Assembly (NCBI RefSeq): GCF_003790525.1
Contig: NZ_CP033635.1
Reading direction: 5' to 3' (one strand)
Source of the DNA: Escherichia coli
Lineage (GTDB): Bacteria > Pseudomonadota > Gammaproteobacteria > Enterobacterales > Enterobacteriaceae
DNA length: 64,000 bases
Part shown: positions 10,286-32,710 of the stretch, one piece after another
Position numbering within the stretch: the first letter of the stretch is position 1
How the letters are laid out: each line of letters starts with the position of its first letter
The notes under the pieces: model-generated
The model's input: the letters and a program-made list of their open reading frames with translations, nothing else
Told to the model about the DNA's origin: nothing
Database searches by the model: none
Translations under genes and position numbers: made by a program

Positions 10286-10373
10286 TTTTGTAAACCTGTG
10301 CCTCAAGGTTTGTCTCCCCCCGGTGTGCAAAGCAAAAGGAAATTGGGAAAGGGGATAACAGGAAATTGATTGC

Positions 10374-10994: not shown

Positions 10995-11018
10995 TGTACG
11001 TTCAAGAGTATTAGTGTT

Positions 11019-18932: not shown

Positions 18933-18939
18933 TCACACA

Positions 18940-18964
18940 GTGGCAGGAGGGGACCTCCTGCCAC
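18940..18964 (+). other. GC-rich stem-loop between the autotransporter and the skp-like gene, with no T-tract
   Basis: The hairpin gtggcaggagg-gga-cctcctgccac lies 8 nt after the upaE stop and 15 nt before the next start. Confidence 0.6.
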
Positions 18965-18979
18965 CTCAGGGTTGTCATA

Positions 18980-19510: not shown

Positions 19511-19947
19511 TCACTAGATTCTGACGATTTCCAGAAGGGAGATTCAGCAGGCCAGCATCTGTAATCATTCAGATTTTCTGGCTTGCTGCTAAATATGGTT
19601 GCTGAGAAAAATAGCAGTCCAGTAATTTATTCAGATTACTGAATATAATAATTTTTCAGGAACGGTTATGCTGAAGGTAGTATGTTTAATCGACACAATT
19701 ATTTGCTGTGTCTAATATGAGGTGACATTTTTATGATCACTGACCAGCAAGACTGACCCGTATTGATTAGCCTGATTATTGGCAACTTATTGGGGTAGTC
19801 ATTTTGACATCGAATGGGGGAGGTTTCCAGTTAAGTTCACGAATGCATGATGATTTGCGTTCACATATCGAAGTGCTGGTTGACTATACTAAGGATTTTA
19901 AGATAACTCACTGATTGTAAGTGGGTTATTGCGAGGGGGATGATAAA

Positions 19948-19966
19948 TGGTGTCCCTGCAGAAATC
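19948..19966. repeat. distal att repeat (degenerate copy of the argW 3' end)
   Basis: tggtgtccc-tgcagaaatc here compares with tggtgtcccctgcaggaatc at 32636-32655. The difference is one 1-nt deletion and one mismatch. Confidence 0.7.
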
Positions 19967-20115
19967 ATCTTAATTATTATTATGTTGATTTATATGTAGT
20001 TTATTTTTGATTTTTTGTTTTTGTACCCGTTTTGTGCCCGTTTTATTCGATTCCCAATTTAAACTTCGATTCTAGAAAGGTGAGTAGGGGAGGTTATCAT
20101 TTCATGTATCATTAT

Positions 20116-20159
20116 TGTAGACACAGAATAATTACTCGCCTATCCTCACTGTAGACACA
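20116..20159. promoter_or_regulatory. direct repeats TGTAGACACA(G/C)AATA x2 upstream of the toxin-antitoxin operon (candidate operator)
   Basis: tgtagacaca occurs at 20116-20125 and 20150-20159, 25-70 nt upstream of the mazE-like start. Confidence 0.45.
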
Positions 20160-20183
20160 CAATAGATACAGGAGTTAACCCAC

Positions 20184-20432
20184 ATGCGCACACAGGTTGT
20201 ATTGCAAAAATGGGGTAATAGCATTGCCCTTCGACTAACGGGAAACCTTAAAACCGTTCCGGGGTTTTCAGTGGGTGATATCGTCAACGTTGAAATTAGT
20301 GAAAAGGGGCTTTTTGTAGAAAAGCCTGCACGCCGTCGCCTGAGTGAAGCCGAATTACTCGCCGGGATAACGCCAGTTACAGCGCACGCGGACGAAATTG
20401 CCACCCCATTCAATGAGGAGGTTGATTACTGA
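20184..20432 (+). CDS. MazE/ChpS-like antitoxin (AbrB/SpoVT fold)
   Basis: The 82-aa ORF contains the motif LQKWGNSIALRL, characteristic of MazE-type antitoxins. It has an acidic C-terminus and a TGATG overlap with the toxin gene. Confidence 0.8.
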   Translation: MRTQVVLQKWGNSIALRLTGNLKTVPGFSVGDIVNVEISEKGLFVEKPARRRLSEAELLAGITPVTAHADEIATPFNEEVDY

Positions 20433-20776
20433 TGTTTGTACCTAAGCGTGGTGATATTTGCTGGCTGGATTTTGAGCCGCAGAAAGGAAAAGAGAGCGGA
20501 AAGTATCGCCCGGCACTCATACTATCCCATGAGCAATATAACCGACTCACCGGGCTTGTCATATGCTGCCCCATAAGTACGAGCATACGAAATGCTCCCA
20601 CAGAAGTTCCGGTAACAAATCTGGACGCCCCCAGCGTGGTAGCAACCACACTCATTCAAACCCTTGACTGGCGTCAGCGGAAAGCGCGCTTAATCACAGA
20701 GGCAGAAGATGGGGTATTTAATGATGTGCTTGAAAGAGTCATTACCCTGATTGGTGGAGAGCATCTGCTTAAGTAA
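20432..20776 (+). CDS. MazF/PemK-family endoribonuclease toxin
   Basis: The 114-aa ORF contains PKRGDICWLDFEPQKGKESGKYRPALILS and VICCPISTS, the MazF/ChpBK pattern. Confidence 0.8.
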   Translation: MFVPKRGDICWLDFEPQKGKESGKYRPALILSHEQYNRLTGLVICCPISTSIRNAPTEVPVTNLDAPSVVATTLIQTLDWRQRKARLITEAEDGVFNDVLERVITLIGGEHLLK

Positions 20777-20779
20777 AAG

Positions 20780-20797
20780 GAGGGCTGAGAAGCCCTC
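20780..20797. terminator. hairpin between the convergent mazF-like and capsid-like genes
   Basis: The hairpin gagggct-gaga-agccctc lies 4 nt after the mazF-like stop. Confidence 0.45.
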
Positions 20798-20819
20798 AAC
20801 GTTACCAGAAATTTCCTTG

Positions 20820-22091
20820 CTATTCTTTCCAGTCAATCCCATCCAGTAAGCACCCTGCCTCATATTGCCCAACAACCCAGTCAAGATTGCAGGACTCATA
20901 GAAAGCGAGGCGATTATACTGTGGCTCGTTTTTTACCAGACCACGAACGGAGCCGCGTTGCCAGTACAGGCACAGATTGGCAAGAGGTGTGATCAGCACA
21001 GCATTGTCCGGGAAAAATGGAACGGTCACAGCCGGAAGATTCCCCAGCACGGGCTTTTTAATGATTTCCTCGTTAAGCAAAATTTCCTGATTCATCTGCG
21101 ATGGATCAAGACGGTTTATCAAAGGCCATTGTTTACGGACCAGAGTATTGTGACTGCATACGGCCACAATGCCTTCCTGCCACTGTTCATCAATCATGGA
21201 TTGCCAGGCATCCAGAACAAGTGCATCTATTGTATGGTGTGTACCGCGTGTATTGCTTGTCGGCGATGAAACAGAAAGACCGCTGATAACCCTTCCCGCT
21301 GCTTCGTTTCGAAACTTCTGCAACCATCCGACGCCGCAATCGTCACGGCCCGGATATGTTTCAGGATCAGATTGATCGGCATAGTGTGTGCCGTTAAAAC
21401 CAATCTGAATTAAATCCAGCCATTTCCGGCGTTCAAAAGCGGCACGGGCGCTTCCTTCAAGACCATTTGCGGACGCGTGAGCATCGACATTGTCGTAGCT
21501 CAACGCAAAATCAAAATTAACCTGCTCGCAGCGGTAGCCTCTTGAAACCAGTGAATGCGCCTGTAGTGGCGAACGGCGCTCGTGAGGTGGCGATGTACGT
21601 GCCAACGGCCGGGAAGCGTCTACCAGCACAACCTGACCTGATATATCCGTAACAGGCACGGGGGTTATTTCAGCAAGGAAATTTGCCTGCCATCCACTGG
21701 CAAGCGTTGCACTCTGGCGGGGAACGGGTTCAACTTCTGACGAATAGCGCGCAGTATCACCGGAAAAGTGCAAATCCTTCGGATGCTTTCCGGTTATCGA
21801 CTCGATAGCGCAATTGAAAACCATCTGAGACTGTTGATTTCGTTGTGATACAACATAATCAGCAGTGCAATTATAACACTCAATGCCGTCGTTATTACCC
21901 CCACCGCTTGCAGTATGCAGGGTGTGAAGCTCAAGCTCACGCTCCAGTTTTTGATATTCATTGTCCAGCGCGCGACGCGTCTCATCGCTTATGCTTGCTG
22001 TGTTTGCTTTCAGGCGATTCCGGGACATTAACTCCCTGAGTCGGCTCACTATATCAGCGCCGTGCAAATGTGAAATATTCAGACCGCCCAT
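20820..22091 (-). CDS. P2 GpN-family major capsid protein homolog with a ~95-aa N-terminal extension (possible fused scaffold domain)
   Basis: The protein is collinear with recalled P2 GpN. CEQVNFDF aligns with CDQINFDF, GWLQKFRNEA with GWLQKYRNEA, GNLPAVTVPFFPDNAVLITPLANL with GNLPAVRVPYFPADAMLITKLENL, and YESCNLDWVVGQYEAGCL with YESMNIDYVVEDYAAGCL. The start was chosen at the TAATG overlap with the upstream gene (MGGLNISH) rather than the ORF-track start at 22232. Confidence 0.8.
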   Translation of the reverse strand: MGGLNISHLHGADIVSRLRELMSRNRLKANTASISDETRRALDNEYQKLERELELHTLHTASGGGNNDGIECYNCTADYVVSQRNQQSQMVFNCAIESITGKHPKDLHFSGDTARYSSEVEPVPRQSATLASGWQANFLAEITPVPVTDISGQVVLVDASRPLARTSPPHERRSPLQAHSLVSRGYRCEQVNFDFALSYDNVDAHASANGLEGSARAAFERRKWLDLIQIGFNGTHYADQSDPETYPGRDDCGVGWLQKFRNEAAGRVISGLSVSSPTSNTRGTHHTIDALVLDAWQSMIDEQWQEGIVAVCSHNTLVRKQWPLINRLDPSQMNQEILLNEEIIKKPVLGNLPAVTVPFFPDNAVLITPLANLCLYWQRGSVRGLVKNEPQYNRLAFYESCNLDWVVGQYEAGCLLDGIDWKE

Positions 22092-22801
22092 TACTGCCAC
22101 CCCCGGCAGAGTTCTCTGCCCTCCGCAAGGTCGCGCATTTTTTCTGGATTCTGTCGCGCCGCGCTCCATTGTACAGGTGAAGGGGCGTTCCTGATTGCGT
22201 GGCTTACCGAATCCGGCAGTTTCTCCGGGCAATAACGAAGCGGATTGGAGGCATCGCTCTCAATATCGTTAATCCGGCCGCGAATCAGCCCGACACTTTC
22301 AACAATATCTGCCATTTTCAGTGTTTCACATATTTTCTTTTCTGCGTTATACAGCGGCTGGCCAAGCAGCTCACATAAACCACGAATCAATAGCAGAGCA
22401 GGGGTCAGCTCGTTAATCAGTCCGGGAAGTGCTTTTGCAAATATCTCTGCCCGCAACTTATTATCAATGCTTTGGTAAGCACAGCCAGCCTCTGCCGCGT
22501 TATAACGACACTCCAGTAACCTGATGCGCGCCTCATCATGCAATACCCGCAGACGCTCAAGATTTTCTCGCGCCACACCCGCCTGAATGCATAATTTTGC
22601 GGAGGCTTCCGTTTTTGCGCCCAGCGCAGACAGGATTGAGTTCTGCCAGTCACGTTCGAGAGACTCCAGCTCCCCTTTCGTCTGTTCGATAGTCGCTTCC
22701 AGATTGGTGATTAATGATTCCTGTTCGCTGAGTTTTGCCATGGCCGTATCAAACTGTGCTTTACATGCCTGATGCCTGGCGCTTGCCTGAGTTATATCCA
22801 T
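22091..22801 (-). CDS. coiled-coil protein, possibly Sid/Psu-like capsid size-determination or decoration factor
   Basis: The 236-aa ORF is predicted helical, with a heptad-rich N-terminus (AKLSEQESLITNLEATIEQTKGELESLERDW). Its size and position (after Ogr/Delta, before the capsid gene) resemble the P4 sid/psu module. An AGGAG RBS is present. Homology is not verified. Confidence 0.45.
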   Translation of the reverse strand: MDITQASARHQACKAQFDTAMAKLSEQESLITNLEATIEQTKGELESLERDWQNSILSALGAKTEASAKLCIQAGVARENLERLRVLHDEARIRLLECRYNAAEAGCAYQSIDNKLRAEIFAKALPGLINELTPALLLIRGLCELLGQPLYNAEKKICETLKMADIVESVGLIRGRINDIESDASNPLRYCPEKLPDSVSHAIRNAPSPVQWSAARQNPEKMRDLAEGRELCRGWQ

Positions 22802-22879
22802 TGTTTGCTCCTGTAATACATTTTTTACTTACGCCCATTTTTTCCATATTGCGTAATACATTCCAGCCGATTTTGTTCT

Positions 22880-22910
22880 CGTAATACGCTCACAATACTG
22901 TTGTATTACG
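22880..22910. promoter_or_regulatory. inverted repeat CGTAATAC-N15-GTATTACG in the divergent promoter region (candidate operator)
   Basis: The repeat is read directly. It lies between the divergent 236-aa gene and the RHH gene. The same 8-mer recurs 8 times between 22813 and 23889. Confidence 0.5.
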
Positions 22911-22965
22911 CTTTCTTATATCGCGGGTGTTAAATCCCGGTATAAGCAATCAGGGAGGCAACACG

Positions 22966-23199
22966 ATGAAAAAACAAAAGAAAATGCGATACGTATTACG
23001 CTGTATTCGTATCCCGCACGAAATCGACCATAAAATAAATCAGATATGTAAGGACAGAGAGATGAACTACTCCCAGTGCGTCAGAATGTTTATCTGTCAG
23101 GGAATTAAGGCCGGGGAAACGCAGGAAGAAGACCGCAACGGGCGCAATGTAGCGGGAGATGTGTGGGCCTGGGCAAATGACCAGAACTACACGACGTAA
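22966..23199 (+). CDS. small ribbon-helix-helix-like DNA-binding protein (hypothetical)
   Basis: The 77-aa ORF starts at the internal ATG preceded by a GGGAGG RBS. The pattern YVLRCIRIPHEIDHKINQICKDREMNYSQCVRMFICQGI fits a strand-helix-helix fold. The assignment is tentative. Confidence 0.45.
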   Translation: MKKQKKMRYVLRCIRIPHEIDHKINQICKDREMNYSQCVRMFICQGIKAGETQEEDRNGRNVAGDVWAWANDQNYTT

Positions 23200-23249
23200 T
23201 ACAGAAATAACGTAGCCGGTTACACTCGCTGGCTGCGTTATACAAATCA

Positions 23250-23432
23250 CTATGAAGTTTTCAACTTCCTGCGCTTAGTGATGCGTACAAACGACTCAAG
23301 CGTACAAAAACAAGCCCCACACTCAATATTACTGCACTGGTAATACGTTTTGTAGATGTTTTGTTCGTGCTCTTCCAACGAACGACTACGGGTTCGGGCT
23401 GAAGCGCCACAGGCCGGGCAAGGGAAAGACAT
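23250..23432 (-). CDS. Ogr/Delta-family zinc-finger late-gene transcriptional activator
   Basis: The 60-aa ORF has CPACG...CSNIECGACF, four Cys with the Ogr/Delta spacing. A GAGGAG RBS is present. Confidence 0.8.
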   Translation of the reverse strand: MSFPCPACGASARTRSRSLEEHEQNIYKTYYQCSNIECGACFCTLESFVRITKRRKLKTS

Positions 23433-23793
23433 ATCACGCTCCTCTTACTGGTGTGAAATTTGACCTATTATATCTCCTGCCGCCCCCTCTGGCTGTATCA
23501 AATAAACCCGCAGCAGTCGCCGCGTATTACGGACGGACGCACCGTTCCCATGCTCACTCGTCACATTCCCCGTATCAGTTCTCTCTTACCGTAAGAACGG
23601 CTCTGGCTGGCGATAAAACTAACCCGGTCGGGCATTCCCGCAGTCTTTAGAGAAAATGTAATTTACCCCCTGAAACGTGGGCTGTTCCCCCGTCACCTGC
23701 GCGCGAAAAACTCACCGTTTTTTGTGCACGCACGAAATCGCCCTCCGGGTGCGCCAGTACTGGGCCGGATGGGCAAAAAGTTACTCTAAAAAA

Positions 23794-23820
23794 TTGTGCA
23801 AATTTGTGCACTTTTGTGCA
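23794..23820. repeat. three helically phased direct repeats of TTGTGCA (exact 10-bp period)
   Basis: ttgtgca occurs at 23794, 23804 and 23814 in non-coding DNA between the iteron field and ogr. Confidence 0.85.
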
Positions 23821-24046
23821 GATGAACAATAGCGTGAAAAAGAGTGCTTTTGAGAGATTTTTTATGGCAACTGCGCCGCGTGTATTACGTTTTTTACCAT
23901 CCCCGCCGCGCATGTACATACTTCATTTTTCTGCCAGACAACAGGGCAACTCCCCGTGACTGACAGCCCCAAAAAATCAATGATTGATGTTGCATTTTTG
24001 TTAAAGGTTAGACCAGTTGTTTTAGGGCTCTGCCTCATAATCCGGT

Positions 24047-24360
24047 GGGGGGTGCGCAAAGCGGTTACAACGGTTACAACACTCAAAAACACCACTTAAC
24101 AGCATGATTTTAATGGATATTGTTTGTAACCGCTTTGCGGTTACACTGCGGTTACAACGGTTACAGGTTTCAAAAAGCACTTTATTATCAATCAATTAAA
24201 AACTTAACCTGTAACCGCCTGTAACCTAACAAAACGGTTACATGTAACCGCGTTGTAACCGCTTTTATAACTCATCGGACCAGTTATAATATATTGATAT
24301 ATAATACAAAAATAAGTAATTTTAAATTTGTAACCGTTGTAACCGCTTTGCGCACCCCCC
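24047..24360. repeat. iteron field (candidate replication origin): 13 copies of GGTTACA/TGTAACC enclosed by 33-bp perfect inverted repeats, with an AT-rich tract
   Basis: The left arm ggggggtgcgcaaagcggttacaacggttacaa (24047-24079) is the exact reverse complement of 24328-24360. The heptamer occurs in both orientations throughout. The AT-rich stretch lies at about 24280-24327. Confidence 0.7.
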
Positions 24361-24611
24361 CCCAAACTTTAGCGCGACCCTTTAAAATGTTAATTAAACT
24401 CACTTACTCTGTATCTCTCTCGTTAACTCTCTGTTATTGAAATGTATCTCTCCACTGTTTCACTCTTTCTGATAATCAGGGGAAGCAAAAAATTGATGGC
24501 GGCACTACTGCAATATGGCCACCATTGCATTGCTGTTACCGTTGGTTCTGGCCAACAAAAAAGGTCAGCGGGAAACTGACCTCTTTTGCTGTGAATGCGG
24601 CGTTCTGCGGG

Positions 24612-25616: not shown

Positions 25617-25618
25617 GT

Positions 25619-28288
25619 TTAACTCCCCTCCTTGTAACTGAATATCCGGCATTTCAGTACTTCCGGCTCTCTGGCCTCGGCGACCCCTCTTCCGGCGTTT
25701 GCCTGTCTGGAGACCTCACTACGAATGGTTTTGCGGCCTGTCAAAGGTCGGGAACGTCCGGCTGCGAGCAACTCAATCATTTCGCGGTCAGTTCGGATCT
25801 CCACGCGGTGAATAGCGGCAGCCTGTGCCAGTTGCGGAATACTGATAGCAATCCCCTCGCGGCATCCCTTGCCGTAGTGGTTTACACCGTATTTTGTTAT
25901 GCCGTCCAGATAGTCGAACGCCTCCCAGAACGCTATTACTTCCGGCAAGTCATCCGTTACCGCTTTAACTTGTTCCGCTGCCATTCGTTCCAGTTCCTGG
26001 CATGTGGCATTAAGCCATTCATCCGGGATATCAATAACGCATTTCAGCGCCCTGACCAGCGCAATAAGTTGCGCGTGATTTTTGGCAATACGGGGATGGA
26101 GAATATTTTCGCAACCGCAAAGGCGGGTCGTTTCAGGCTCTGAGAGCGCCAGAAACATTTCCATAATTGCCCGTTCACGGCTGACTGCCCGATGAATAAA
26201 CCCTGACACCTTCTCAACGGGGTAGAGTTCCAGTCGTCTCGCCGCCAGCCGGGTATCAGACGAGTGGCGCTTTTTATCGGTATATATGCGAATCAGTCGC
26301 TCAATAATTGCAAGTGAGGCGTTTACCCTGGCATTCTGTGCAATCACGATAGCGCCCTTAAAATCCGGGTCATAGGTGTTGTTATTGTTGGTCTTAACGC
26401 CACGAACGCCGATACCGCCGCCGTTATAGAGGCTTTTCAGGTTATCGAAGTCAAACGCACCTCTTTTTTGCGCATTGCCTCCCCTGTCTGCTTCAATCAG
26501 AACAACAGGTAATCCGGCGACCTGTCCAAAGGTGCGCTTCCAGCCCGCCTCTGATCCTTTGGTTGGATCAACGCCTTCATAGTTGTCACGACCGCACAAC
26601 CGCCAGCAAAAATCAATCAATGTTGATTTACCCGTTCCGGGCTCCCCGGTGACTTCAAGGAAGGGGAAGGATTCTTCTTTATCCCGGATTTGTTCGCTGA
26701 ACAGGGAGCCCAACCAGAAAGCCAGGGTAATAATTCCTTTTTCACCAAAAGCCAGCCAGAGATCTTCCACCCAGGACTCTGTAAACTCATCCGGTTTTTT
26801 GTAGTTAATCTGTAATGTGGGTTTTTCGCTTAATGGTTTTGCGTTTATGCCATCAATTTCAAAATAATCTTCGTCATTGATTTCATAAGTTTTTCCCTTG
26901 TAAACAGCAATATCATTAAACAGCCATGCCCCAATCGCCTTGTTGTATCCGATAAAATCCTGACCAATAACCTCTTTTATTGCGGGAAGGTCATTTTTTA
27001 TTAATGCGTCAAGGTGCGCAGTTGTTCCGGTATAAATGCCGCCTTTTGCCACATGCAACAGGCGTTTTTTAAATTCAGATGCGGATGTCAATTGTCCTGA
27101 TGTAAAGGTGTTTTTCACCGTAGCACCATCCGGGAACGTAACACGGAAGTAATACCATGCTTCATCCGTGTCATTATTTCTAATGTAATAAAGCGGCGCT
27201 GGGTTACAGTTTGCGATTTCTTTTACTGCGCCAGATTCCTTAAGTGCAATTTTGCGCGCTTCATCCTCATCAACACTTCTCTCATTCTTGGCACGCTCTA
27301 CAGCTTTCATATAGCGCTCAATGTCCAGTTTGAACCAGAAAACACGGTTATCAAAAGTAAAATGAAATTCCTTCCGCTCACGAAAGGAAAATATTATTAG
27401 CGCCTTATCTCTCGGAGATTTCGCCAGCAATAAATCACCGTAATGACGGTATCTTTTCACATCATGGCCACGCAGCTTTCCGGCGATGTGTAAATCATTC
27501 CAGTCGCGTTTATTGTTGTTTTTACCTGGCAACGCCGCTGCCGTTCTCCAGCCGTCTTCGGCGCTGCGTTCTGCATGTTTTTTCGCGTAACGCTCACCCG
27601 CACGCCCGTTATCCAGCGCCCACACAATAACCGGACGGGGATTATCCCCGCACAGCTTCGCCAGCTCTTCCAGCGCCTTATCAGGGTAGTTCACGGCAGA
27701 CATGACAGAAACGGCCGCAATGCCATTCTGGTTAAGGCTGATGGCATCAAAGATGCCCTCACAAATCCAGATTTCTTTGGCCTTGCTTAAATCTGCTCCC
27801 GGATAAGCCCACCACAACCCCTTGTAGCTGCCGGAAAAATTCGCCTTGCGCGCGAAGCGTCCCGGTCGGTCTATGATGCGCTCCCACCACACGCCGTCAG
27901 CCAGCGTAAAACGCACAGTAGCGGCCTGTTCGCCGTTTTCCTTGTCCTGGTATCGCTCCTGAGTAAATGCGCCCTTCAGTGGCCCCACAGCAATATTGCG
28001 CGCCTCCTGAAGATAAGCTGCCACCGCTGCATATGGCTCGTCTTTCGTGCTGATATAACGATCTGACCATGATGAAAACACATCCGGGTAAAGTTCTTTG
28101 GTCAGCAGGTCTGTACCGCATTTATTTTCGCGCCCACAGTGTACGATGTACGGCCTTTCAAGGCTGGTAAACAACTCTTTCTTTCCACATTGCGGACAAA
28201 CACCATACCGGAGGTAGTTATTTTCTTCTTTGAAGTTGTAATCACGGATAAGACGGTTAATAATCTCTTTTCTGATGTCAGATTTCAT
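25619..28288 (-). CDS. P4 alpha-like primase-helicase (Zn finger, Toprim and SF3-type P-loop NTPase)
   Basis: The features are CPQCGKKELF...HCGRENKCG (zinc finger), WICEGIFDAISL (Toprim) and VTGEPGTGKST (Walker A). The start was chosen at MKSDIRKE (28288), which has a GGTGGAG RBS. Confidence 0.85.
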   Translation of the reverse strand: MKSDIRKEIINRLIRDYNFKEENNYLRYGVCPQCGKKELFTSLERPYIVHCGRENKCGTDLLTKELYPDVFSSWSDRYISTKDEPYAAVAAYLQEARNIAVGPLKGAFTQERYQDKENGEQAATVRFTLADGVWWERIIDRPGRFARKANFSGSYKGLWWAYPGADLSKAKEIWICEGIFDAISLNQNGIAAVSVMSAVNYPDKALEELAKLCGDNPRPVIVWALDNGRAGERYAKKHAERSAEDGWRTAAALPGKNNNKRDWNDLHIAGKLRGHDVKRYRHYGDLLLAKSPRDKALIIFSFRERKEFHFTFDNRVFWFKLDIERYMKAVERAKNERSVDEDEARKIALKESGAVKEIANCNPAPLYYIRNNDTDEAWYYFRVTFPDGATVKNTFTSGQLTSASEFKKRLLHVAKGGIYTGTTAHLDALIKNDLPAIKEVIGQDFIGYNKAIGAWLFNDIAVYKGKTYEINDEDYFEIDGINAKPLSEKPTLQINYKKPDEFTESWVEDLWLAFGEKGIITLAFWLGSLFSEQIRDKEESFPFLEVTGEPGTGKSTLIDFCWRLCGRDNYEGVDPTKGSEAGWKRTFGQVAGLPVVLIEADRGGNAQKRGAFDFDNLKSLYNGGGIGVRGVKTNNNNTYDPDFKGAIVIAQNARVNASLAIIERLIRIYTDKKRHSSDTRLAARRLELYPVEKVSGFIHRAVSRERAIMEMFLALSEPETTRLCGCENILHPRIAKNHAQLIALVRALKCVIDIPDEWLNATCQELERMAAEQVKAVTDDLPEVIAFWEAFDYLDGITKYGVNHYGKGCREGIAISIPQLAQAAAIHRVEIRTDREMIELLAAGRSRPLTGRKTIRSEVSRQANAGRGVAEAREPEVLKCRIFSYKEGS

Positions 28289-28336
28289 ATATAAAACTCC
28301 ACCCCACTGCACCTTTTGCCGTGGGGTTTTTATTAA

Positions 28337-28636
28337 TTACTCGTTACTTATTGCTTTGGCAATCCCGGCGGTTTCAGCACTATGCCATGAAAAAATTCCG
28401 CCAGAAGTATGCATTCCTGACTTAATCACTCGTAATTCCCGATAAAGAATGTTAGTTAATGATTCCATTTCATTAATTTGCACTGGCATTCTCTCACTGG
28501 TATTAATTTCACCTGTCAATGCTGAAATGAGCGCAATAACATTTATTACATCTTCAAGATTCTCAATGGAATCTTCCGTGAAAAAACCAGCGTATTCTTT
28601 TTTGTATATATTGCGGATATTCTGATTTTCAGACAT
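28337..28636 (-). CDS. hypothetical protein (satellite early operon)
   Basis: The 99-aa ORF has a GGGGAG RBS, is co-oriented with the operon, and was not recognised. Confidence 0.5.
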   Translation of the reverse strand: MSENQNIRNIYKKEYAGFFTEDSIENLEDVINVIALISALTGEINTSERMPVQINEMESLTNILYRELRVIKSGMHTSGGIFSWHSAETAGIAKAISNE

Positions 28637-28703
28637 AAAAACTCCCCGACCCGTTAAGATCGAAATATAAATTTAATTCAGTTATCAGTTGGTAATTCGG
28701 TAA

Positions 28704-28922
28704 TCAGTCGGAAAGCTGCGTCACCTTCAACGCTTTGAAATGTGTCATTCCCAGCTCTTCCAGCCCTTCGGCTGCGCGGCGTATGGCTTCGCCCGGTCCC
28801 GTTCCGTATACCGTTGCATGTGCATGTTTGGTTAACCCACGTTTATTAACGGCATAACCCAACACAAAGAAACGTTTTTCACCACTGCCATTATTTTTAC
28901 GGGATATTGAACGGCTTTTCAT
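28704..28922 (-). CDS. hypothetical protein (satellite early operon)
   Basis: The 72-aa ORF has an ATGA start/stop overlap with the upstream ORF. Confidence 0.5.
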   Translation of the reverse strand: MKSRSISRKNNGSGEKRFFVLGYAVNKRGLTKHAHATVYGTGPGEAIRRAAEGLEELGMTHFKALKVTQLSD

Positions 28923-29104
28923 TTCTTCACCCTTACCACTGATGCTGTGAGTTCTTCTGGCAATTGATATTTCGGCGCAATTTCTTCCGTATACCTGATA
29001 GCGTCCCTTGCCGCTTTTCCTTTTGATTTATATTTATATGTGGTGCGGTAGTTTTCTTCCTCTCCTGTTACCACATTACGCAATTTTATATGAATCTCGT
29101 ACAT
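28919..29104 (-). CDS. hypothetical protein (satellite early operon)
   Basis: The 61-aa ORF starts at MYEIHIKL. A GGAGGGG RBS is present, and the ATG lies 2 nt after the upstream stop. Confidence 0.5.
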   Translation of the reverse strand: MYEIHIKLRNVVTGEEENYRTTYKYKSKGKAARDAIRYTEEIAPKYQLPEELTASVVRVKK

Positions 29105-29106
29105 CG

Positions 29107-29289
29107 TTACCCCTCCATGATTTTTACTGCGCATTTGTGGGTTAATCGCCCCTGTTTGTCATTGCGGGAATATGCCATACGACAGGTATCACGCCATGCA
29201 TCGTCATAAGTCGGATATTCCCGGGAATGAATCATCTGGCGAACGTCGCCGTTCTGGTAGTTAATCAGGGTGATAAGGAGCTTAAACAT
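29107..29289 (-). CDS. hypothetical protein (satellite early operon)
   Basis: The 60-aa ORF starts at MFKLLITL. Its ATG overlaps the upstream stop (ATGTTTAA). The longer 145-aa ORF-track version was rejected. Confidence 0.45.
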   Translation of the reverse strand: MFKLLITLINYQNGDVRQMIHSREYPTYDDAWRDTCRMAYSRNDKQGRLTHKCAVKIMEG

Positions 29290-29809
29290 GGCACGCCTCC
29301 CGGACACGGATACGGGCAACAAAGACCAGACGGGATGCCGGAAGCAGGGCGCGCGCTTCGCGCTCACTGGCAGCGGTAACGGTATGAAGGCGGATATTTT
29401 TACCGTGGCACTGCATAAAGCGCCAGATAAAATCAGGGCGTGTTGATATAGCCATTTTGGCGGCTCCTTGATTAAGTTTACGGAGTCTCGCCAGCACGCT
29501 GTCAAACATGGTGGCGGGACGTAACAGGGTTGACAGACTGGCAATCAAGGAACCAGCGAGCGCAAAGGCTCCCCCATTACGCCCCGCCATAATACGGGGT
29601 AGGGTGGAATTACGGGCACAAAAAAACCGCATTACGGAAATATAGCGGCTACCCGCTTGATTGTTCAGGCTGTCAAACCCGGCACCCGCTTTATGAGGTG
29701 CGGGCAAACGATACGCCATGACAAAAAAGCGAGTCAAGCAATATTGCAAATTATTTTTGCGCAATTGCGCTGAGTGATTGATTTTTAAGAGTAAAAAAGT
29801 CATAATCAT
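29282..29809 (-). CDS. Ash-family / Icd-like (cell-division-inhibitor-like) protein, possibly a fusion or with a later start
   Basis: The middle segment (AGAGFDSLNNQAGSRYISVM...RIMAGRNGGAFALAGS) resembles Ash-family proteins of P4-like islands. The C-terminus (FIWRFMQCHGKNIRLHTVTAASEREARALLPASRLVFVARI) resembles Icd-like proteins. Confidence 0.55.
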   Translation of the reverse strand: MIMTFLLLKINHSAQLRKNNLQYCLTRFFVMAYRLPAPHKAGAGFDSLNNQAGSRYISVMRFFCARNSTLPRIMAGRNGGAFALAGSLIASLSTLLRPATMFDSVLARLRKLNQGAAKMAISTRPDFIWRFMQCHGKNIRLHTVTAASEREARALLPASRLVFVARIRVREACHV

Positions 29810-29815
29810 TTCTGC

Positions 29816-30067
29816 CTATTGTTTCTTATTGTTGATTTCAGGTGCACTAAATGCACATCCTTGACTGGTTGGCTCGCTGGCTTTAGCGAGCTTCTTTTTT
29901 GCTCTGCTGCCAATACCCGGCCTCCTTCCCTCACATGTAGTCATGTGCTCATTCCAGTCAGGTGGATAATGCTGTATTACCGGACATCCGGTTATGATGT
30001 TTAAAGCGTTTGTTTGTTTATGCCACGTGGAGAATATACCCCCACCGCCATTACTTGTATTTATCAT
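29816..30067 (-). CDS. hypothetical protein (first ORF after alpA)
   Basis: The 83-aa ORF ends 6 nt before the next start and was not recognised. Confidence 0.4.
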   Translation of the reverse strand: MINTSNGGGGIFSTWHKQTNALNIITGCPVIQHYPPDWNEHMTTCEGRRPGIGSRAKKKLAKASEPTSQGCAFSAPEINNKKQ

Positions 30068-30362
30068 AACAGTTCACCCAATTCGGTTAATGTAACCGGA
30101 ATAACTCAATTTCATACACTGTAAATAAATGCTGATTTTAAACTTAGCTCCTTGGAATATATTTCTTACGTGTGACGCACAGGTGAAAATATCCCTCTGA
30201 TAGTCCATTTTCTTTTATTTTGTCACATCTGTTTACTCCGGTTCCCTTAACAAGGGTAGAGCATCTTTTAAACCATGAATGCATCTTCGGTTAAGTGATG
30301 TTTCTTATTGTATGAAATATTTAGGCGCATATCGCGCCATGCTGACTATAAAATGAAAATAA

Positions 30363-30584
30363 TTAAGCCTGAAAACGTTGTTGTTTTCTTTCTTCTATCC
30401 AGTCGATAATTTCCTCTTCAACCCATGCAACCGCGCGAGGGCCTATTTTTATTGGTTTGGGGAATATATCAGATTTTATATCTTCGTAAATTCGAGCTCT
30501 TGATCTCCCTGTGATTTCAATGACTCTGGGGAGTCTTATTAATTTTTGAATCCGCCTTTCGCTGGTCTGTGAGTATGCTGACAT
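30363..30584 (-). CDS. alpA: AlpA/Vis-family phage transcriptional regulator or excisionase (MerR-like HTH)
   Basis: The 73-aa ORF contains LIRLPRVIEITGRSRARIYEDIKSDIFPKPIKIGPRAVAWVEEEIIDWI, the AlpA signature. Confidence 0.85.
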   Translation of the reverse strand: MSAYSQTSERRIQKLIRLPRVIEITGRSRARIYEDIKSDIFPKPIKIGPRAVAWVEEEIIDWIEERKQQRFQA

Positions 30585-30939
30585 ATTGGCCTCCTGTATA
30601 TGCTGACATTTTACGTTAGCTCACAGCGGGAGCATGTAAGATCTCGCGGTCGTCTGCGGGACGAGAAAAATCATAAACAACGAAAAGCGGATTTGTAAAT
30701 CAGGTCGATTTTCAGGCGGGGTTGACATGGACAGTGAGATTTGTTCCATGTGTGCAATATACATTTTAGGACCACTTTAAGCCACTTTAAACCGCCAGAA
30801 AGCGACAAAGAATAACAAGTTAGTGCCAGAAAGGTTTGCTGACTTACCCTTTTAGGTACCAGAAAAAGCCCTTTCAGGTCGGTGTAATGCTTGTGAACGC
30901 TGAAATAGTGGTTTCTGAAAACAAAAAAAGAATTGAAAA

Positions 30940-30955
30940 TGTGATAAATATCACA
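30940..30955. promoter_or_regulatory. perfect 16-bp palindrome TGTGATAAATATCACA (CRP-consensus half-sites with 6-bp spacer)
   Basis: aaaatgtgataaatatcacaaaat is read directly. It lies in the 610-bp non-coding region between int and alpA. Confidence 0.55.
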
Positions 30956-31112
30956 AAATAATATCGATAAAATAGTTTGATTTTTTTGTTTTTATTAAAA
31001 GCACTGGTTAATTGTAAAAAATTAATTATAAATCAAATGGATATATCTGTTTTTTTAGGGTAAAAATCACTAGGTGCTTTTAGCAGTATCTTATTCTATT
31101 GATTTTAAAAGA

Positions 31113-31147
31113 TAAAAAAATCGGCGTGTCCACATATTGTCCACGCC
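31113..31147 (-). terminator. rho-independent terminator of the island integrase, with two GTGGACA direct repeats in the hairpin
   Basis: On the minus strand, ggcgtg-gacaatatgtgga-cacgcc is followed by gattttttt, about 48 nt after the int stop. Confidence 0.65.
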
Positions 31148-31194
31148 TTGAGTTTAATTCAGCCGCTTGGGATAGTTTAGTTTGTTGAGTTGAT

Positions 31195-32457
31195 TCAGTC
31201 TGTTTCGTTAGTCCATTTAAAATCATAGGGGGAAATATATGCCGCCTTGCAGGTGTCGAGATAATCAGCCCACCATTGCAACATTCGGCGGCGTTCCTGC
31301 ATATGTTCAGCTCTGTGAACGTATGCAGCCCGGACACTGCCTCTTTCCCTGTGACTCATCTGAAGCTCAACGGCTTCTCTTGTCCACCTGCCTGACTCTG
31401 TCAGCGCCGAACAGGCCATGGTCCTGAATCCGTGACCACAAATATCTTTTTTTGTGTCGTATCCCATGTGGCGTAATGCCTTGTTAATGGTGTTTTCGCT
31501 CATTGGTTTTATCTGGTAATGGTCGCTGGGGAAAATAAACACTTCATCACCGGATATATTTCTTATATCGTCAAGAAGCTGCATGGCCTGAGTGGGTAAA
31601 GGGATGGCGTGAGGGGTTCCCATTTTCGTTCCACGATATGAATATTTTACGCCTTCTATTTTTTCGCGTTCTGCTGGTATTACCCACATTGATTTATCAA
31701 AGTCAATTTCATTCCAACGAGCAAAACGCAATTCACTTGAGCGAATAAAAATTAATAAATTTAATTTTAGTGCAAATTGCGTTAATAACCGTCCATTCAT
31801 CTTATGGTGGTAATCATTTATTTTGCCAAGTAATTCAGGTAATCGCTCAAGGGGAAGAGCGGGGCGATGTTTGGTTTTATTAGTTTCGATTGCACCGTTC
31901 AGTTCCTGCGCTGGATTGTATTTAATCATTCCATTCTGTACAGCGTAGCGCATAATGGCGTTCATTCGCTGCTTGTTACGTGATGCTGTCTCAAGCACTC
32001 CTTTGTCTTCCATTTTGCGTAAAGGAATCAGTAGATCCATGGTTGTGATCTCGTTAATTGGCCTTTTACCAAGAATGGGGAAGATGTGGTTTTCCAGGTC
32101 TTTTAAGACTTTTTGCGCGTGCAATTCGCTCCAGCCCTTTTTCCGGCTGTGCCATTCTCTGGCAACGTCTTCAAAAAGCACTATTTGAGGTTTTGGTGTG
32201 TGCAGTGGGTCAATGCCTTTAGCCAGGCTCGCCAGATATTCATCACGAGCGTTCCTTGCCTGTGCAAGTGTTACGGCAGGATAAATGCCTAAAGCTCGGG
32301 TCGTTTCTTTACCGTTGATAACCTTGCGAAAGCGCCAGTATTTTGAGCCGTTGGGGTGAACATAGAGATACAGGCCTTTCCCGTCACGAAGTTTTTTAAT
32401 TTTATTGTTGTCCTTATCTGGTTTGGCGTTACGTACAGCTATATCAGTCAGTTTCAT
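31195..32457 (-). CDS. P4-type (DUF4102 N-terminal arm-binding domain) tyrosine integrase
   Basis: The ORF has MKLTDIAVRNAKPDKD...GKGLYLYVHPNGSKYWRFR, and C-terminal HGFRTMA and Y in VRAAYVHRAEH. The start at 32457 has a GGAGGA RBS. The gene lies directly downstream of, and co-oriented with, tRNA-Arg. Confidence 0.9.
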   Translation of the reverse strand: MKLTDIAVRNAKPDKDNNKIKKLRDGKGLYLYVHPNGSKYWRFRKVINGKETTRALGIYPAVTLAQARNARDEYLASLAKGIDPLHTPKPQIVLFEDVAREWHSRKKGWSELHAQKVLKDLENHIFPILGKRPINEITTMDLLIPLRKMEDKGVLETASRNKQRMNAIMRYAVQNGMIKYNPAQELNGAIETNKTKHRPALPLERLPELLGKINDYHHKMNGRLLTQFALKLNLLIFIRSSELRFARWNEIDFDKSMWVIPAEREKIEGVKYSYRGTKMGTPHAIPLPTQAMQLLDDIRNISGDEVFIFPSDHYQIKPMSENTINKALRHMGYDTKKDICGHGFRTMACSALTESGRWTREAVELQMSHRERGSVRAAYVHRAEHMQERRRMLQWWADYLDTCKAAYISPYDFKWTNETD

Positions 32458-32635
32458 TATGTTGATCCTCCAGACGGGTACAAATAAAAATCGAACCAAG
32501 CATACCCGCTTTTATACCCATTTTAATATGGGCTTCAGGCAAATTTAACGAGAGAAAATGAGACAATGGGAGATGTTTAACTCATTGAAAGTAAATGGAT
32601 AATGGTTTTTTCTGAGAGGTTGCAAGAAGTTGCGA

Positions 32636-32710
32636 TGGTGTCCCCTGCAGGAATCGAACCTGCAATTAGCCCTTAGGAGGGGCTCGTTATATCCATTTAA
32701 CTAAGAGGAC
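32636..32710 (-). tRNA. argW: tRNA-Arg (anticodon CCU)
   Basis: The reverse complement reads GTCCTCTTAGTTAAATGGATATAACGAGCCCCTCCTAAGGGCTAATTGCAGGTTCGATTCCTGCAGGGGACACCA. It forms a cloverleaf with a CCT anticodon in CTCCTAAGG and an encoded CCA end. Confidence 0.93.

Follow-up and report, generated by a model that had tools for sequence, protein, structure and literature searches.

In P4, attP is flanked by int and alpha, and the int-psu interval holds the cargo and cos. Packaging in PICIs is redirected by Rpp/TerS-type proteins together with capsid-morphogenesis genes, and other helpers are used. The cf-PICIs encode a portal, protease, head-tail adaptor, connector and TerS/TerL, and take only tails from the helper (PMC10085698). 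Among P4-like elements, de Sousa et al. reported Type C subfamilies in Escherichia and Salmonella, in which the missing genes were unexplained (PMC10085698).

Here we analyzed an island of ~12.7 kb in a window of 64,000 nt (the whole stretch of E. coli DNA under study, from contig NZ_CP033635.1 of assembly GCF_003790525.1). We consider it probable, at roughly 0.7, that this island is a helper-dependent satellite of P2-family phages and a member of a conserved lineage. The lineage appears to be P4-related, rearranged and capsid-encoding, and the island looks intact. In the literature we found no description of a P4-related, rearranged satellite lineage with a capsid gene. The combination of its own capsid protein with a copy of a helper integrase may represent a way of hijacking phages for which we likewise found no description.

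Borders, early operon and replication module

The borders are the tRNA-Arg(CCT) gene argW and a degenerate repeat of its 3′ end. The features involved in integration, immunity and replication are:

32636-32710, minus strand: tRNA-Arg(CCT) gene, argW (ARAGORN, sole tRNA found; Rfam tRNA)
31195-32457, minus strand: int1, P4-type tyrosine integrase
30363-30584, minus strand: AlpA/Vis-type excisionase-regulator (Pfam Phage_AlpA, E 5.5e-17)
29620-29701, minus strand: isrK-like leader RNA (RF01394)
29507-29594, minus strand: C4/CI-type antisense immunity RNA (Rfam RF01695, full length)
29282-29809, minus strand: Icd-like ORF
28337-29289, minus strand: four small early-operon ORFs of 99, 72, 71 and 60 aa (ORF list; RefSeq annotation of homologues)
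25619-28294, minus strand: primase-helicase of phrog_1139 type, ~890 aa
24044-24363, no strand assigned: iteron field, candidate origin of replication
19948-19966, no strand assigned: distal att repeat, degenerate tRNA-Arg 3′ end

The att core lies in the argW 3′ end (32636-32655, TGGTGTCCCCTGCAGGAATC), which int1 targets. The distal repeat, TGGTGTCCCTGCAGAAATC, differs from it by one absent C and one mismatch, and homology to the island begins at window positions 19941-19948 in 18 other E. coli genomes. int1 has Arm-DNA-bind_3, Phage_int_M and Phage_integrase domains and is 53% identical to P4 Int over 417 aa; Arm-DNA-bind_3 is the new name for DUF4102. AlpA is 34% identical to P4 ORF88/Vis.

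The C4/CI RNA scored 74.6 bits (gathering score 45), as compared to 74.9 bits for the CI RNA region of P4 itself. The isrK-like leader scored 50.6 bits (gathering score 50), and RF03163 gave a sub-threshold 30.8 bits at the same place. The two RNAs occur in the same order as in P4 (Rfam), with a candidate C4 target region a1/b1 at 29662-29714. An earlier note on this DNA, made from the sequence alone, did not include them. It had placed six small ORFs between alpA and the primase, one of them Ash/Icd-like. We count five, and the Icd assignment held in part: PHROGs for Icd and repressors match the C-terminal third alone (residues 121-175) of an ORF whose RefSeq homologue is named "host cell division inhibitor Icd-like", while its 5′ part overlaps the two RNA genes. 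Pfam, PHROG and PADLOC returned no matches for the other four ORFs. The 99-aa ORF is located where relatives have a "Derepression" (epsilon-family) gene; homology between the two was undetectable, and we detected no epsilon-type derepressor among the ORFs of this copy.

The primase contains zinc-ribbon and Toprim domains (the latter by Pfam), a weak D5-like NTPase match and the Walker A motif GEPGTGKS. It matches phrog_1139 end to end (E 2.4e-297), is 51% identical to the primase of Evevirus ESSI2_ev239, and is 41-45% identical to primases in Ralstonia, Pseudomonas and other phage records. BLASTP against P4 alpha gave short local matches only (E 0.003). The description of this protein as alpha-like is apt for its domains, which are common to alpha, yet it belongs to another family and is no orthologue. 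Primases of the phrog_1139 type are also seen in Peduoviridae.

Of the 18 GGTTACA copies in the window, a number reached in no shuffle, 13 fall within 24063-24344, in both orientations. The field has an AT-rich center and is flanked by a terminal inverted repeat of 36 nt. In relatives, iteron fields specific to each lineage directly follow the primase, with or without int2, and 24044-24363 is probably the origin of replication.

Late module and sequences resembling helper phages

The remaining features are:

24612-25622, minus strand: int2, tyrosine integrase of P88_4B11 type, ORF-only copy
23655-23821, minus strand: cos-like packaging region, copy from P88-like (Xuanwuvirus-type) P2-family phages
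23250-23432, minus strand: Ogr/Delta zinc-finger late-gene activator, 60 aa (Pfam Ogr_Delta, E 2.3e-11)
22966-23199, plus strand: ribbon-helix-helix (RHH)-like regulator, 77 aa
22852-23000, no strand assigned: divergent control region with four CGTAATAC/GTATTACG operator-like motifs
22091-22801, minus strand: Sid-like protein, 236 aa, candidate external size-determining scaffold
20820-22091, minus strand: divergent P2-family (GpN-type) major capsid protein, 423 aa
20184-20776, plus strand: MazE/MazF (PemK) toxin-antitoxin pair

The cos-like region, of ~170 bp, is 81% identical to non-coding DNA beside the portal gene of P88-like phages. The copy spans the whole phage region, with its three phased TGCACAA repeats and a candidate 19-nt cohesive-end core, GGTGACGGGGGAACAGCCC (23679-23697), which occurs once in the window. 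We found this core in at least 120 contigs of IMG/VR; none was a satellite, and 114 had a P88-like portal or terminase nearby. All conserved phage cos blocks are kept in satellites of E. coli, Salmonella and Erwinia, and the phage-type version occurs at 60-90% identity in ~1,100 E. coli genomes. Cohesive ends were not found in the literature on P88-like phages. We infer a cos function for 23655-23821 from its position and conservation. The region was absent from the earlier reading of the island.

int2 is 48% identical to P2 Int and considerably closer to Int of the Xuanwuvirus phages P88_4B11, Chuche, PhiR44_2 and Shae_phiSM (81% at the amino acid and 74% at the nucleotide level). Its homology to the phage gene stops ~60 nt short of the stop codon, and as RefSeq annotates a homologous island, the start of int2 and the primase stop share 4 nt. 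Near int2 we found no GTCCACG repeats, presumed to be the arm-type repeats of the phage; the adjoining DNA had no attB-like matches and matched other copies of the element only. The Klebsiella member has an int with 92% nucleotide identity to that of the local Reipivirus Kp4845-1, with which it also shares the cos core and ogr region. On these observations, int2 is an ORF-only copy, without attP, of the integrase of the local helper lineage, and the E. coli and Klebsiella elements seem to have acquired their copies in separate events. A P2-type second integrase had been proposed as part of what sets the family apart; it is present here and is not family-wide, as it lies in a variable region and relatives in Salmonella, Pectobacterium and Erwinia do not have it.

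The closest protein to the island Ogr was the homologue from P88_4B11 (44% identity, vs. 30% for P2 Ogr and P4 Delta in our alignment). No canonical Ogr box (TGT-N12-ACA) was found upstream of the late operon. The gene for the RHH-like regulator points away from the Sid-like/capsid operon and retains its position and sequence in all relatives examined, including an N-terminal RxxRxPxExD motif, and weakly matches CopG_antitoxin (E 0.086). The earlier note had not listed this plus-strand gene. All seven copies of the operator-like motif in the 64-kb window are located in 22852-23889 (chance expectation 1.15; no shuffle reached 7), and the GTAATAC motif is also found upstream of the Sid-like gene in Salmonella relative L017.

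Profile-profile comparison (hhalign) aligned the Sid-like protein with the Sid family over 94 collinear columns (probability 77%, E 2e-5). Phrog_6165, which P4 Sid matches at 6e-116, was matched by 10 of 13 members of the Sid-like family, with E 0.059 for the island protein itself. The best two PDB matches of its AF2 model (pLDDT 92.8) in Foldseek were P4 Psu and P4 Sid, at a non-significant E of ~0.1; BFVD and P2 gpO gave no matches. We therefore retain the previous call of a Sid/Psu-like coiled coil as that of a probable distant Sid homologue, with remote homology as its sole basis. The capsid protein matches Pfam Phage_cap_P2 over residues 133-420 (E 1.6e-73), is 34-35% identical to P2 N and P88 N, and has a clade-specific N-terminal extension of ~85 aa that is absent from phage GpN in the alignment. 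It belongs to a clade of capsids from satellite-like islands (41-52% identity) that stands apart from phage capsids (262-389 vs. at most 216 bits). RefSeq places the capsid start directly at the Sid-like stop in a homologous island, and the ORFs in the window overlap likewise, suggesting that the two genes are translationally coupled.

The MazEF pair, named from RefSeq annotation of homologous islands and a match to the MazF-like phrog_1936 (E 6e-27), is cargo at the att-distal end, a position that holds other cargo in relatives. RefSeq annotation, Pfam and PHROG gave no matches to portal, terminase, tail or lysis families among the island ORFs. Most of the earlier reading was thus borne out: the tRNA-Arg and repeat borders, the DUF4102-type integrase, AlpA, the iteron field, the Ogr/Delta zinc finger, the P2-type integrase, the GpN-like capsid gene, the opposite-strand MazEF pair and the lack of terminase, portal, tail and lysis genes. 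Its claim that the P4 hallmark functions are carried applies to Int, Vis, C4/isrK, Delta/Ogr and a remote Sid, and not to Psu, epsilon and alpha; Psu and epsilon were sought in the island and not found.

Distribution, proposed life cycle and alternative explanations

The late module and gene order are shared with islands in Salmonella, Klebsiella, Erwinia and Pectobacterium, making five genera with Escherichia. The conserved module consists of Ogr, the reverse RHH gene, the Sid-like gene and the capsid gene, with iterons following the primase. At 93% identity or more, the Sid-like/capsid module occurs in 56 of 5,426 complete E. coli genomes, some of which carry two. Metagenome contigs of ~13 kb were chromosomal fragments, with no packaged genomes among them. 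At the DNA level, a phage collection had only the cos segment and the tRNA in common with the island, and BLASTP with P4 proteins matched only Int, Vis and Delta. The block 20100-29940, including int2, has a counterpart of 96% identity between hpt and gcd in E. coli. Because this core is also found at a second site behind another outer integrase, we read the island as one element rather than two in tandem.

The idea that the island represents a distinct satellite family rather than a P4 variant is supported by gene order and a capsid clade that recur across five genera. Two observations named in advance as counting against it were not made: we found neither an end-to-end alignment with a characterized satellite nor independent att junctions for the int-to-primase and int2-to-capsid halves. 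As the element is clearly P4-related (Int, Vis/AlpA, C4/isrK, Delta/Ogr, remote Sid), the choice between "distinct family" and "divergent P4-like subfamily" is a question of definition.

On the sequence evidence, the P4-type integrase would insert the island into the argW 3′ end and AlpA/Vis would drive excision. The C4/CI antisense RNA in the early-operon leader would silence the operon, as in P4; the operon would run icd, small ORFs, primase, int2. After activation, the primase-helicase would replicate the circle from the neighboring iteron origin. The Ogr homologue would activate helper late genes and possibly those of the satellite, whose Sid-like/capsid operon would also be controlled by the RHH regulator at GTAATAC operators. 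The Sid-like protein and the satellite's own capsid protein may then form small capsids with helper portal, gpO, terminase, head-completion proteins and tails; we give even odds to small capsids being built from the satellite's own protein. Helper terminase would package the satellite via the copied ~170-bp cos region, and int2, acquired without attP, presumably works in trans on helper att sites. The cos copy, the closest Ogr and the 81% identity of int2 point to helpers of P88/Xuanwuvirus type. These phages are 35.8-37.1 kb, and the satellite/helper size ratio of 0.34-0.35 equals that of P4 (11.6 kb) to P2 (33.6 kb).

Alternatively, the island may be an ordinary P4-like satellite, for example one of the "Type C" variants already detected by SatelliteFinder, in which the capsid gene and int2 are incidental P2-like cargo without a role in hijacking. 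The P4-type Int, Vis, C4/isrK RNAs, Delta, remote Sid homologue, P2-family cos region and P4-like size would all be expected, Type C subfamilies exist in Escherichia and Salmonella (PMC10085698), and the patchy occurrence of int2 fits cargo. However, the capsid gene is not variable cargo, being Sid-coupled in every relative examined in five genera, and its clade is old, with low identity to helper capsids and its own N-terminal extension. Furthermore, the genes are not arranged in the conserved P4 order, searches for Psu and epsilon were negative, and in place of alpha there is a primase family seen in Peduoviridae. We consider this explanation unlikely. One could also envision a decayed composite, immobile as a unit, of a P4-like island in tandem with a P2-like prophage remnant, given two integrases of different families, the P2-family relatives of int2, cos, ogr and capsid, and the IS insertions in the copies of some strains. 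This is very improbable: we found no internal att junction, the DNA beside int2 matches element copies only and is devoid of phage arm sites, the whole core relocates behind a different outer integrase, all ORFs of the island are intact, and gene order is maintained from genus to genus. The sequence int2, ori, cos, ogr, sid-like, capsid differs from the P2 order, and an identity of 34-35% to phage capsids is too low for a recent remnant.

Helper processes are the target of four parts of the island, namely the capsid, the Sid-like protein, the cos copy and the helper-type Int, as would also be expected if it were chiefly an anti-phage defense island. Here the capsid and Sid-like proteins would poison helper capsid assembly, Int and the cos decoy would sequester helper functions, MazEF would abort infection, and self-transfer would be inefficient. 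Variable regions of relatives carry the defense genes AIPR, GmrSD with type I R-M, and HicAB, and P4-like satellites are known defense hotspots (PMC9122126). Nevertheless, interference and transfer coexist in known satellites, and the occurrence of nearly identical cores at different sites and in many lineages points to horizontal transfer that is still going on. The complete replication module and full-length cos copy are packaging needs, and PADLOC recognized no defense system in this copy. We regard a chiefly defensive island as quite improbable, and favor the helper-dependent satellite.

Comparison with PICIs, P1/P7 and P4

Classical Gram-negative PICIs (e.g., EcCICFT073) resemble the island in their int, alpA, primase order beside att and in helper dependence. 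Pfam and PHROG identified no Rpp/TerS-type or capsid-morphogenesis genes of PICIs among the island ORFs, and the island differs in having a cos copy, Ogr and a Sid-like protein. With cf-PICIs (e.g., EcCIEDL933) it shares the int, alpA, primase layout and a major capsid protein of its own in a clade apart from phage capsids. However, it has the capsid, of the P2 GpN family, and the Sid-like protein only, and would therefore also have to borrow portal, scaffold/protease and terminase. In the immI region of P1/P7 (c4 RNA, icd, ant), too, a single transcript holds a C4 antisense RNA and then an Icd-like ORF, whereas in the island no Ant homologue was identified and the setting is, as for P4, the early operon of a satellite.

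The likeness to P4 (helper P2/186) is the most extensive. Both have a same-family tyrosine integrase in a tRNA 3′ end, Vis/AlpA, a C4/CI antisense RNA and isrK-like leader ahead of the early operon, and a large zinc-finger/Toprim/P-loop primase followed by iterons, which in relatives of the island resemble the P4 GGTGAACA repeat. They further share an Ogr/Delta activator and a protein of the Sid family, and in each the cos region was copied from a P2-family helper, the genome is roughly a third as long as that of the helper, and cargo and defense genes lie close to one end. The P4 map given in the earlier note agreed with the P4 genome order, and the island layout is indeed different: attP and int are upstream of alpA rather than downstream of alpha, the late genes are co-directional with the early operon, and the replication and late modules are separated by cos. 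The island primase is of another family (phrog_1139, as in Evevirus and other phage records), Psu and a detectable epsilon are missing from this copy, and Ogr is single-length as opposed to the duplicated Delta. In addition, the island encodes a P2-family capsid protein of its own, whose gene is coupled to that for the Sid-like protein, and an RHH regulator with dedicated operators; it carries an orphan helper-type integrase, and its cos and Ogr are of P88 type rather than P2/186 type.

Extent and gene content of the argW island

The window belongs to the E. coli chromosome, with dsdC, yfdC and mlaA annotated around the island in homologous genomes. An earlier note had bounded the island by a tRNA-Arg gene and a degenerate repeat of its 3′ end. 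The only tRNA found by ARAGORN is argW, whose 3′ end (TGGTGTCCCCTGCAGGAATC) recurs as an imperfect copy (TGGTGTCCCTGCAGAAATC) at 19948-19966, and homology to the island starts at window position 19941-19948 in 18 other complete genomes. The att repeat and this common starting point indicate that the boundaries were placed correctly, giving an element of ~12.7 kb with the features below.

Features of the island (window coordinates, strand, identification)
32636-32710, minus: tRNA-Arg(CCT), argW (ARAGORN)
31195-32457, minus: int1, P4-type integrase, 53% identical to P4 Int
30363-30584, minus: AlpA/Vis (Pfam Phage_AlpA)
29620-29701, minus: isrK-like RNA (Rfam)
29507-29594, minus: C4 antisense RNA (Rfam)
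28337-29809, minus: Icd-like ORF and four small ORFs (ORF list, RefSeq homologues, PHROGs)
25619-28294, minus: primase-helicase, ~890 aa (Pfam, PHROGs)
24612-25622, minus: int2, second integrase; start overlaps the primase stop in a homologous island's annotation
24044-24363: iteron field
23655-23821, minus: cos-like region (match to P88-like phage DNA)
23250-23432, minus: Ogr (Pfam Ogr_Delta)
22966-23199, plus: putative regulator, 77 aa (family conservation)
22091-22801, minus: Sid-like protein cc236, 236 aa (phrog_6165 in its family, hhalign)
20820-22091, minus: P2-family capsid protein (Pfam); start abuts the Sid-like stop
20184-20776, plus: MazEF (homologue annotation, PHROGs)

Among the island ORFs, RefSeq homologue annotation, Pfam and PHROGs gave no matches to portal, terminase, scaffold/protease, tail or lysis families, which bears out the earlier claim that terminase, portal, tail and lysis genes are missing. 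A 90-aa ORF (23647-23919, minus strand) lies over the conserved cos-like region and is a "hypothetical protein" in RefSeq homologues; similar small "hypothetical" ORFs occur at the cos-like region in records of P88-like phages. This ORF is probably a spurious gene call. The C4 RNA (29507-29594) and the isrK-like RNA (within 29620-29714, minus strand) both fall within the 175-aa "Icd-like" ORF that was called mechanically, as does a sub-threshold c4-a1b1 target match within 29620-29714, and the 5′ two thirds of this ORF are probably non-coding.

The earlier note had considered that the two halves of the island might have independent att junctions, as expected of two tandem degraded elements. 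No such junctions were found. The block 20100-29940, from MazEF to the Icd-like ORF and including int2, is found again at 96% identity in other E. coli strains, where it lies between hpt and gcd and follows an outer integrase and a regulator that differ from those of the island. Even at E values up to 10, the DNA flanking int2 has no match in 5,426 E. coli genomes except in other copies of the element. The Sid-like/capsid module occurs at ≥93% identity in 56 of these 5,426 complete genomes, some of which have two copies. The movement of the core as a block, the int2 flanks and the distribution of the module all argue against two tandem degraded elements. Island copies in other strains (H1-H3 and H21) are broken by IS21, IS5/IS903B or IS100, indicating that some copies are decaying.

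Outside the island, ~12 kb (8109-19510) separate dsdC (6761-7714) from the att repeat. This stretch encodes a 2637-aa autotransporter (ESPR signal, PATR, AC_1 autochaperone) and an OmpH-like ORF, and is missing in HNSQ2209, where dsdC adjoins the island. At 19000-20000 the GC content drops to 37%. The 8109-19510 stretch may be a separate insertion; no additional att repeat was identified.

A capsid-encoding lineage with a Sid-like protein

Homologues of the island capsid protein form two groups. The first (41-52% identity, 262-389 bits) comes from Salmonella, Klebsiella, Erwinia, Pectobacterium, Symbiopectobacterium and E. coli, whereas the second consists of ordinary P2-like phage capsids (≤38% identity, ≤216 bits). 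Five loci of the first group were examined for gene plan, and all five have the same arrangement. A P4-type integrase (where the locus extends far enough upstream) and AlpA or another HTH gene come first, followed by Ash or small ORFs and the primase gene (711-896 aa). After a variable stretch come Ogr, a gene on the reverse strand (59-77 aa), a Sid-like gene (~240 aa), the capsid gene and cargo. None of the five contains portal, terminase or tail genes. In E. coli and Klebsiella the variable stretch is occupied by int2; Salmonella has HicAB there, and Pectobacterium an AIPR protein. Cargo 3′ of the capsid gene includes MazEF, or GmrSD with a type I restriction-modification system; PADLOC recognized no defence systems in the island copy of the window. 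In the Erwinia relative, the primase is preceded by Derepression and DUF5375 ORFs, the families of P4 epsilon and ORF106. Alignment with phage GpN shows that the satellite capsids are extended at the N-terminus by a stretch containing a conserved helical motif, and that the C-terminal tail of the phage protein is missing from them. The lineage is present in ~1% of complete E. coli genomes as well as in Salmonella, Klebsiella, Erwinia and Pectobacterium, and carries toxin-antitoxin and defence cargo.

The protein encoded immediately upstream of the capsid, cc236, had no BLASTP match to P4 Sid. Its own match to phrog_6165, the PHROG that P4 Sid matches at 6e-116, has an E value of 0.059, and 10 of 13 members of the cc236 family match this PHROG, the best at 8e-5. 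A full HMMER scan recovered about a dozen distant relatives of ~240 aa. When the cc236 family was compared with a 17-member Sid alignment by hhalign, the probability was 77% (E 2e-5), over 94 collinear columns confined to the N-terminal half. The AF2 model of cc236 reached a pLDDT of 92.8 with an MSA and was poor (54) from the single sequence. The best two PDB matches of this model in Foldseek were P4 Psu (3rx6) and P4 Sid (7jw1_E, TM 0.48), at a non-significant E of ~0.1, and a BFVD fold search returned generic coiled-coil matches only. A gpO-type internal scaffold was rejected as an assignment for cc236 (hhalign probability 0.2%), and hhalign of the family against Psu gave a probability of 0.3%. 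Membership of cc236 in the Sid family is therefore probable, not proven.

The control region of this late module contains a repeated octamer, CGTAATAC. All seven copies in the 64-kb window lie within 22852-23889, including four in the interval separating the Sid-like gene from the divergent 77-aa gene; of the others, one is upstream of ogr and another near cos. The same motif is found upstream of the Sid-like gene in the Salmonella relative (L017). The 77-aa protein is conserved across the lineage and has a ribbon-helix-helix-like N-terminus, suggesting that it represses or otherwise regulates the late operon. The canonical Ogr/Delta box TGT-N12-ACA is missing from the late control region, and its count in the window is at chance level. 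A TGT-N15-ACA spacing fits both the island and the P/O promoter of phage P88, but at chance frequency, and so is a weak hint only. A 14-mer, CTTACAACAAAAGC, following CTGGCC, is exact upstream of the Sid-like gene in the Klebsiella, Pectobacterium and Erwinia relatives (L019, L021, L022). It also occurs in the divergent P/O late-promoter region of P88 (14213-14245 of locus L008) and may be a late-promoter element common to these relatives and P88; the window has only a degenerate version, GAGAACAAAATC.

Sequences shared with P88-like phages

A non-coding segment of ~170 bp in the island is 81% identical to portal-adjacent DNA of P88-like phages (Xuanwuvirus and relatives), the position that cos occupies in P2. 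Within it, the candidate cos core GGTGACGGGGGAACAGCCC is unique in the window and, by our own count, shares 13 of its 19 positions with the P2 cohesive end of 19 nt. A consensus built from 103 distinct phage copies (103 unique IMG/VR contigs) has three TGCACAA repeats at 10-bp phase, a fourth (TGCACAAAAAA) ~75 bp away, and then GCGCGCA and the 19-nt core. This region lies at 10903-11062 in the P88 locus (L008) and also at the ends of locus L007. All of its conserved blocks are retained in the E. coli, Salmonella and Erwinia satellites, while the flanks have diverged. We found no published description of this architecture. The phage-type version is present in ~1,100 of 5,426 E. coli genomes, which indicates that candidate helpers are common. 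The island Ogr is closest to that of P88_4B11 (44%). At 12.7 kb, the island is 0.34-0.35 times the length of P88-type genomes (35.8-37.1 kb), the same ratio as P4 to P2, and this would fit packaging into a small capsid.

The core was found in at least 120 IMG/VR contigs, with P88-like portal or terminase genes nearby in 114 and none from a satellite, so the search for packaged satellite genomes in IMG/VR gave no candidate. Metagenome contigs of ~13 kb were also considered as packaged genomes; one of them, L146, was checked over its whole length and terminates in chromosomal flank, not at cos.

The second integrase points to the same phages. With the Int of P88_4B11, Chuche, PhiR44_2 and Shae_phiSM, int2 shares 81% identity at the protein level and 74% at the DNA level, and these phages also share the cos region with the island. 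The DNA homology is restricted to the ORF and stops ~60 nt short of the stop codon; the presumed arm-type repeats TGTCCACG, just past the phage int, are missing from the island. An attachment site for int2 was rejected on the grounds of these missing repeats and of flanks that match only element copies. The iterons were ruled out as arm sites because equivalent primase-adjacent iterons occur in relatives that lack int2. In Klebsiella, the satellite int2 matches the integrase of Klebsiella Reipivirus Kp4845-1 at 94.5% protein and 92% DNA identity, again over the ORF only, and this phage and the satellite also have the cos core and ogr region in common. Identity between the int2 proteins of the E. 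coli and Klebsiella satellites is only 46%, yet it reaches 81% and 94.5% with the respective phage counterparts; the simplest reading is that the gene for the local helper's integrase has been captured repeatedly, without attP.

Relation to known satellites and proposed parasitism

The island was compared with four classes of element. P4-like satellites have seven core components (Moura de Sousa & Rocha, PMC8628076 / PMC10085698). Three of the seven are clearly present here (Int, AlpA, Delta), two are not (Psu, epsilon), and Sid and alpha fall in neither group. int1 is 53% identical to P4 Int over 417 aa (Pfam Arm-DNA-bind_3, Phage_int_M, Phage_integrase), AlpA/Vis matches Phage_AlpA at E 5.5e-17 and is 34% identical to P4 ORF88, and Ogr matches Ogr_Delta at E 2.3e-11, although P4 Delta is a tandem duplication and the island protein a single 60-aa unit. 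The island also shares with P4 the pair of C4 (RF01695, 74.6 bits) and isrK-like (RF01394, 50.6 bits) RNAs, both of which Rfam finds in the same order in the P4 CI region; the C4-type CI RNA is a hallmark of P4, yet it lies outside the SatelliteFinder markers. Further shared traits are iterons adjoining the primase and, at the sequence level, a helper-type cos, here the ~170-bp P88-type copy. Each relative has its own iteron family next to the primase (GGTGTAACA, GTGGGAACA, GGGTAACA, CGTTACA or 21-bp TGGGACAAC repeats; L017 6570-6800, L019 5148-5370, L022 7604-7806, L021 5793-5928, L023 6621-6725), and several resemble the P4 type I repeat GGTGAACA, though the primases are not alpha orthologues by BLAST.

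On the other side, no island ORF matches phrog_6366, the family of P4 Psu, and the small ORFs have no match to Pfam Derepression or to any PHROG. A 99-aa ORF upstream of the primase was rejected as epsilon because Pfam gave no match and BLASTP no similarity to the Derepression protein of a relative; this protein is present in the Pectobacterium and Erwinia relatives, and a Phage_ASH protein in several. The primase has the domain plan of P4 alpha, with short BLASTP matches only (E 0.003 over 27 aa, 0.057 over 98 aa). It matches phrog_1139 end to end and is 51% identical to the primase of Evevirus ESSI2_ev239 and 41-45% identical to primases of Ralstonia, Pseudomonas and other phage records. Gene order differs as well. 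The conserved P4-like order is a psu-delta-sid operon, after which come alpA, epsilon and alpha, with int beside alpha across attP (PMC8628076 / PMC10085698). P4 has attP and int after alpha, a divergent late operon, and cargo and cos between int and psu. The island instead runs int, alpA, RNAs, primase, int2, ori, cos, ogr, sid-like and capsid, with int and attP before alpA, ori and cos after the replication genes, and co-directional late genes.

Capsid-forming PICIs (cf-PICIs) combine the capsid gene with portal, protease, head-tail adaptor, connector, TerS and TerL, whereas the island has the capsid gene and no other head or packaging match in Pfam or PHROGs, outside the definition of that class. 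With classical Gram-negative PICIs (int, alpA, pri-rep and an Rpp/TerS/Ppi-type gene) it shares int, alpA and primase, and falls outside the class for want of any TerS, Rpp or Ppi-like match in the same databases. A P2-like (Peduoviridae) prophage would have portal, terminase, scaffold, tail and lysis genes, all missing here, and the remaining P2-family genes are out of P2 order.

The PICI-like layout described in the earlier note holds for int, alpA and primase. Its attribution of the P4 hallmark functions stands for Int, AlpA and Ogr/Delta, is limited to short local similarity for the primase, and does not extend to Psu or epsilon. The suggestion of a distinct family rather than a P4 variant agrees with the recurrent gene plan and the separate capsid group, but Int, Vis, the RNAs and Delta/Ogr keep the lineage related to P4. 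The "Type C" P4-like subfamilies of Escherichia and Salmonella, for which the SatelliteFinder paper mentions no capsid gene (PMC10085698), may include it. Full-text literature searches returned no description of a P2-helper satellite with a GpN-type capsid, and nothing relevant on Xuanwuvirus satellites or the cos core sequence. Given the class tests and this outcome, we place the island in a P4-related, capsid-encoding lineage of satellites. Present-day classifiers probably overlook this lineage or record it as an incomplete P4-like element.

We tentatively propose, at a probability of roughly 0.3, that these satellites practise an undescribed form of parasitism on P2-family phages, with their own capsid protein and Sid-like scaffold and a captured helper integrase used in trans. 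Our statements on excision, replication and cos cleavage, like those on capsid size, int2's role and helper identity, are read from sequence. The satellite would bring a co-evolved capsid protein together with the Sid-like scaffold. If so, small capsids would no longer depend on a helper capsid protein that stays sensitive to Sid. In P2, "sir" mutations in gene N provide an escape from P4, and a satellite-encoded capsid would bypass escape of this kind. The satellite would also repeatedly take the integrase ORF, and not the attP, of its local P2-like helper. Expressed with the replication genes, the captured enzyme may act in trans on helper att sites and alter the helper's integration state. 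P2 int is poorly expressed from the prophage, and a satellite could thus plausibly supply Int to excise a helper prophage whose own int is silent. Alternatively, since the substrate of P2 terminase is a monomeric circle, driving helper circles to re-integrate could plausibly take away the competing substrate and leave satellite DNA alone for packaging. An orphan helper-type integrase, apparently captured independently in two genera, points to an unstudied satellite/helper interaction in integration and excision, and matched capsid/scaffold pairs, if confirmed, would offer a natural system for the setting of capsid size.

To our knowledge, known satellites either remodel capsids made entirely of helper proteins (P4, SaPIs, PLE) or encode a nearly complete head (cf-PICIs). 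A satellite that supplies the capsid subunit and an external scaffold and borrows portal, protease, terminase and tail would represent an intermediate strategy between the two.
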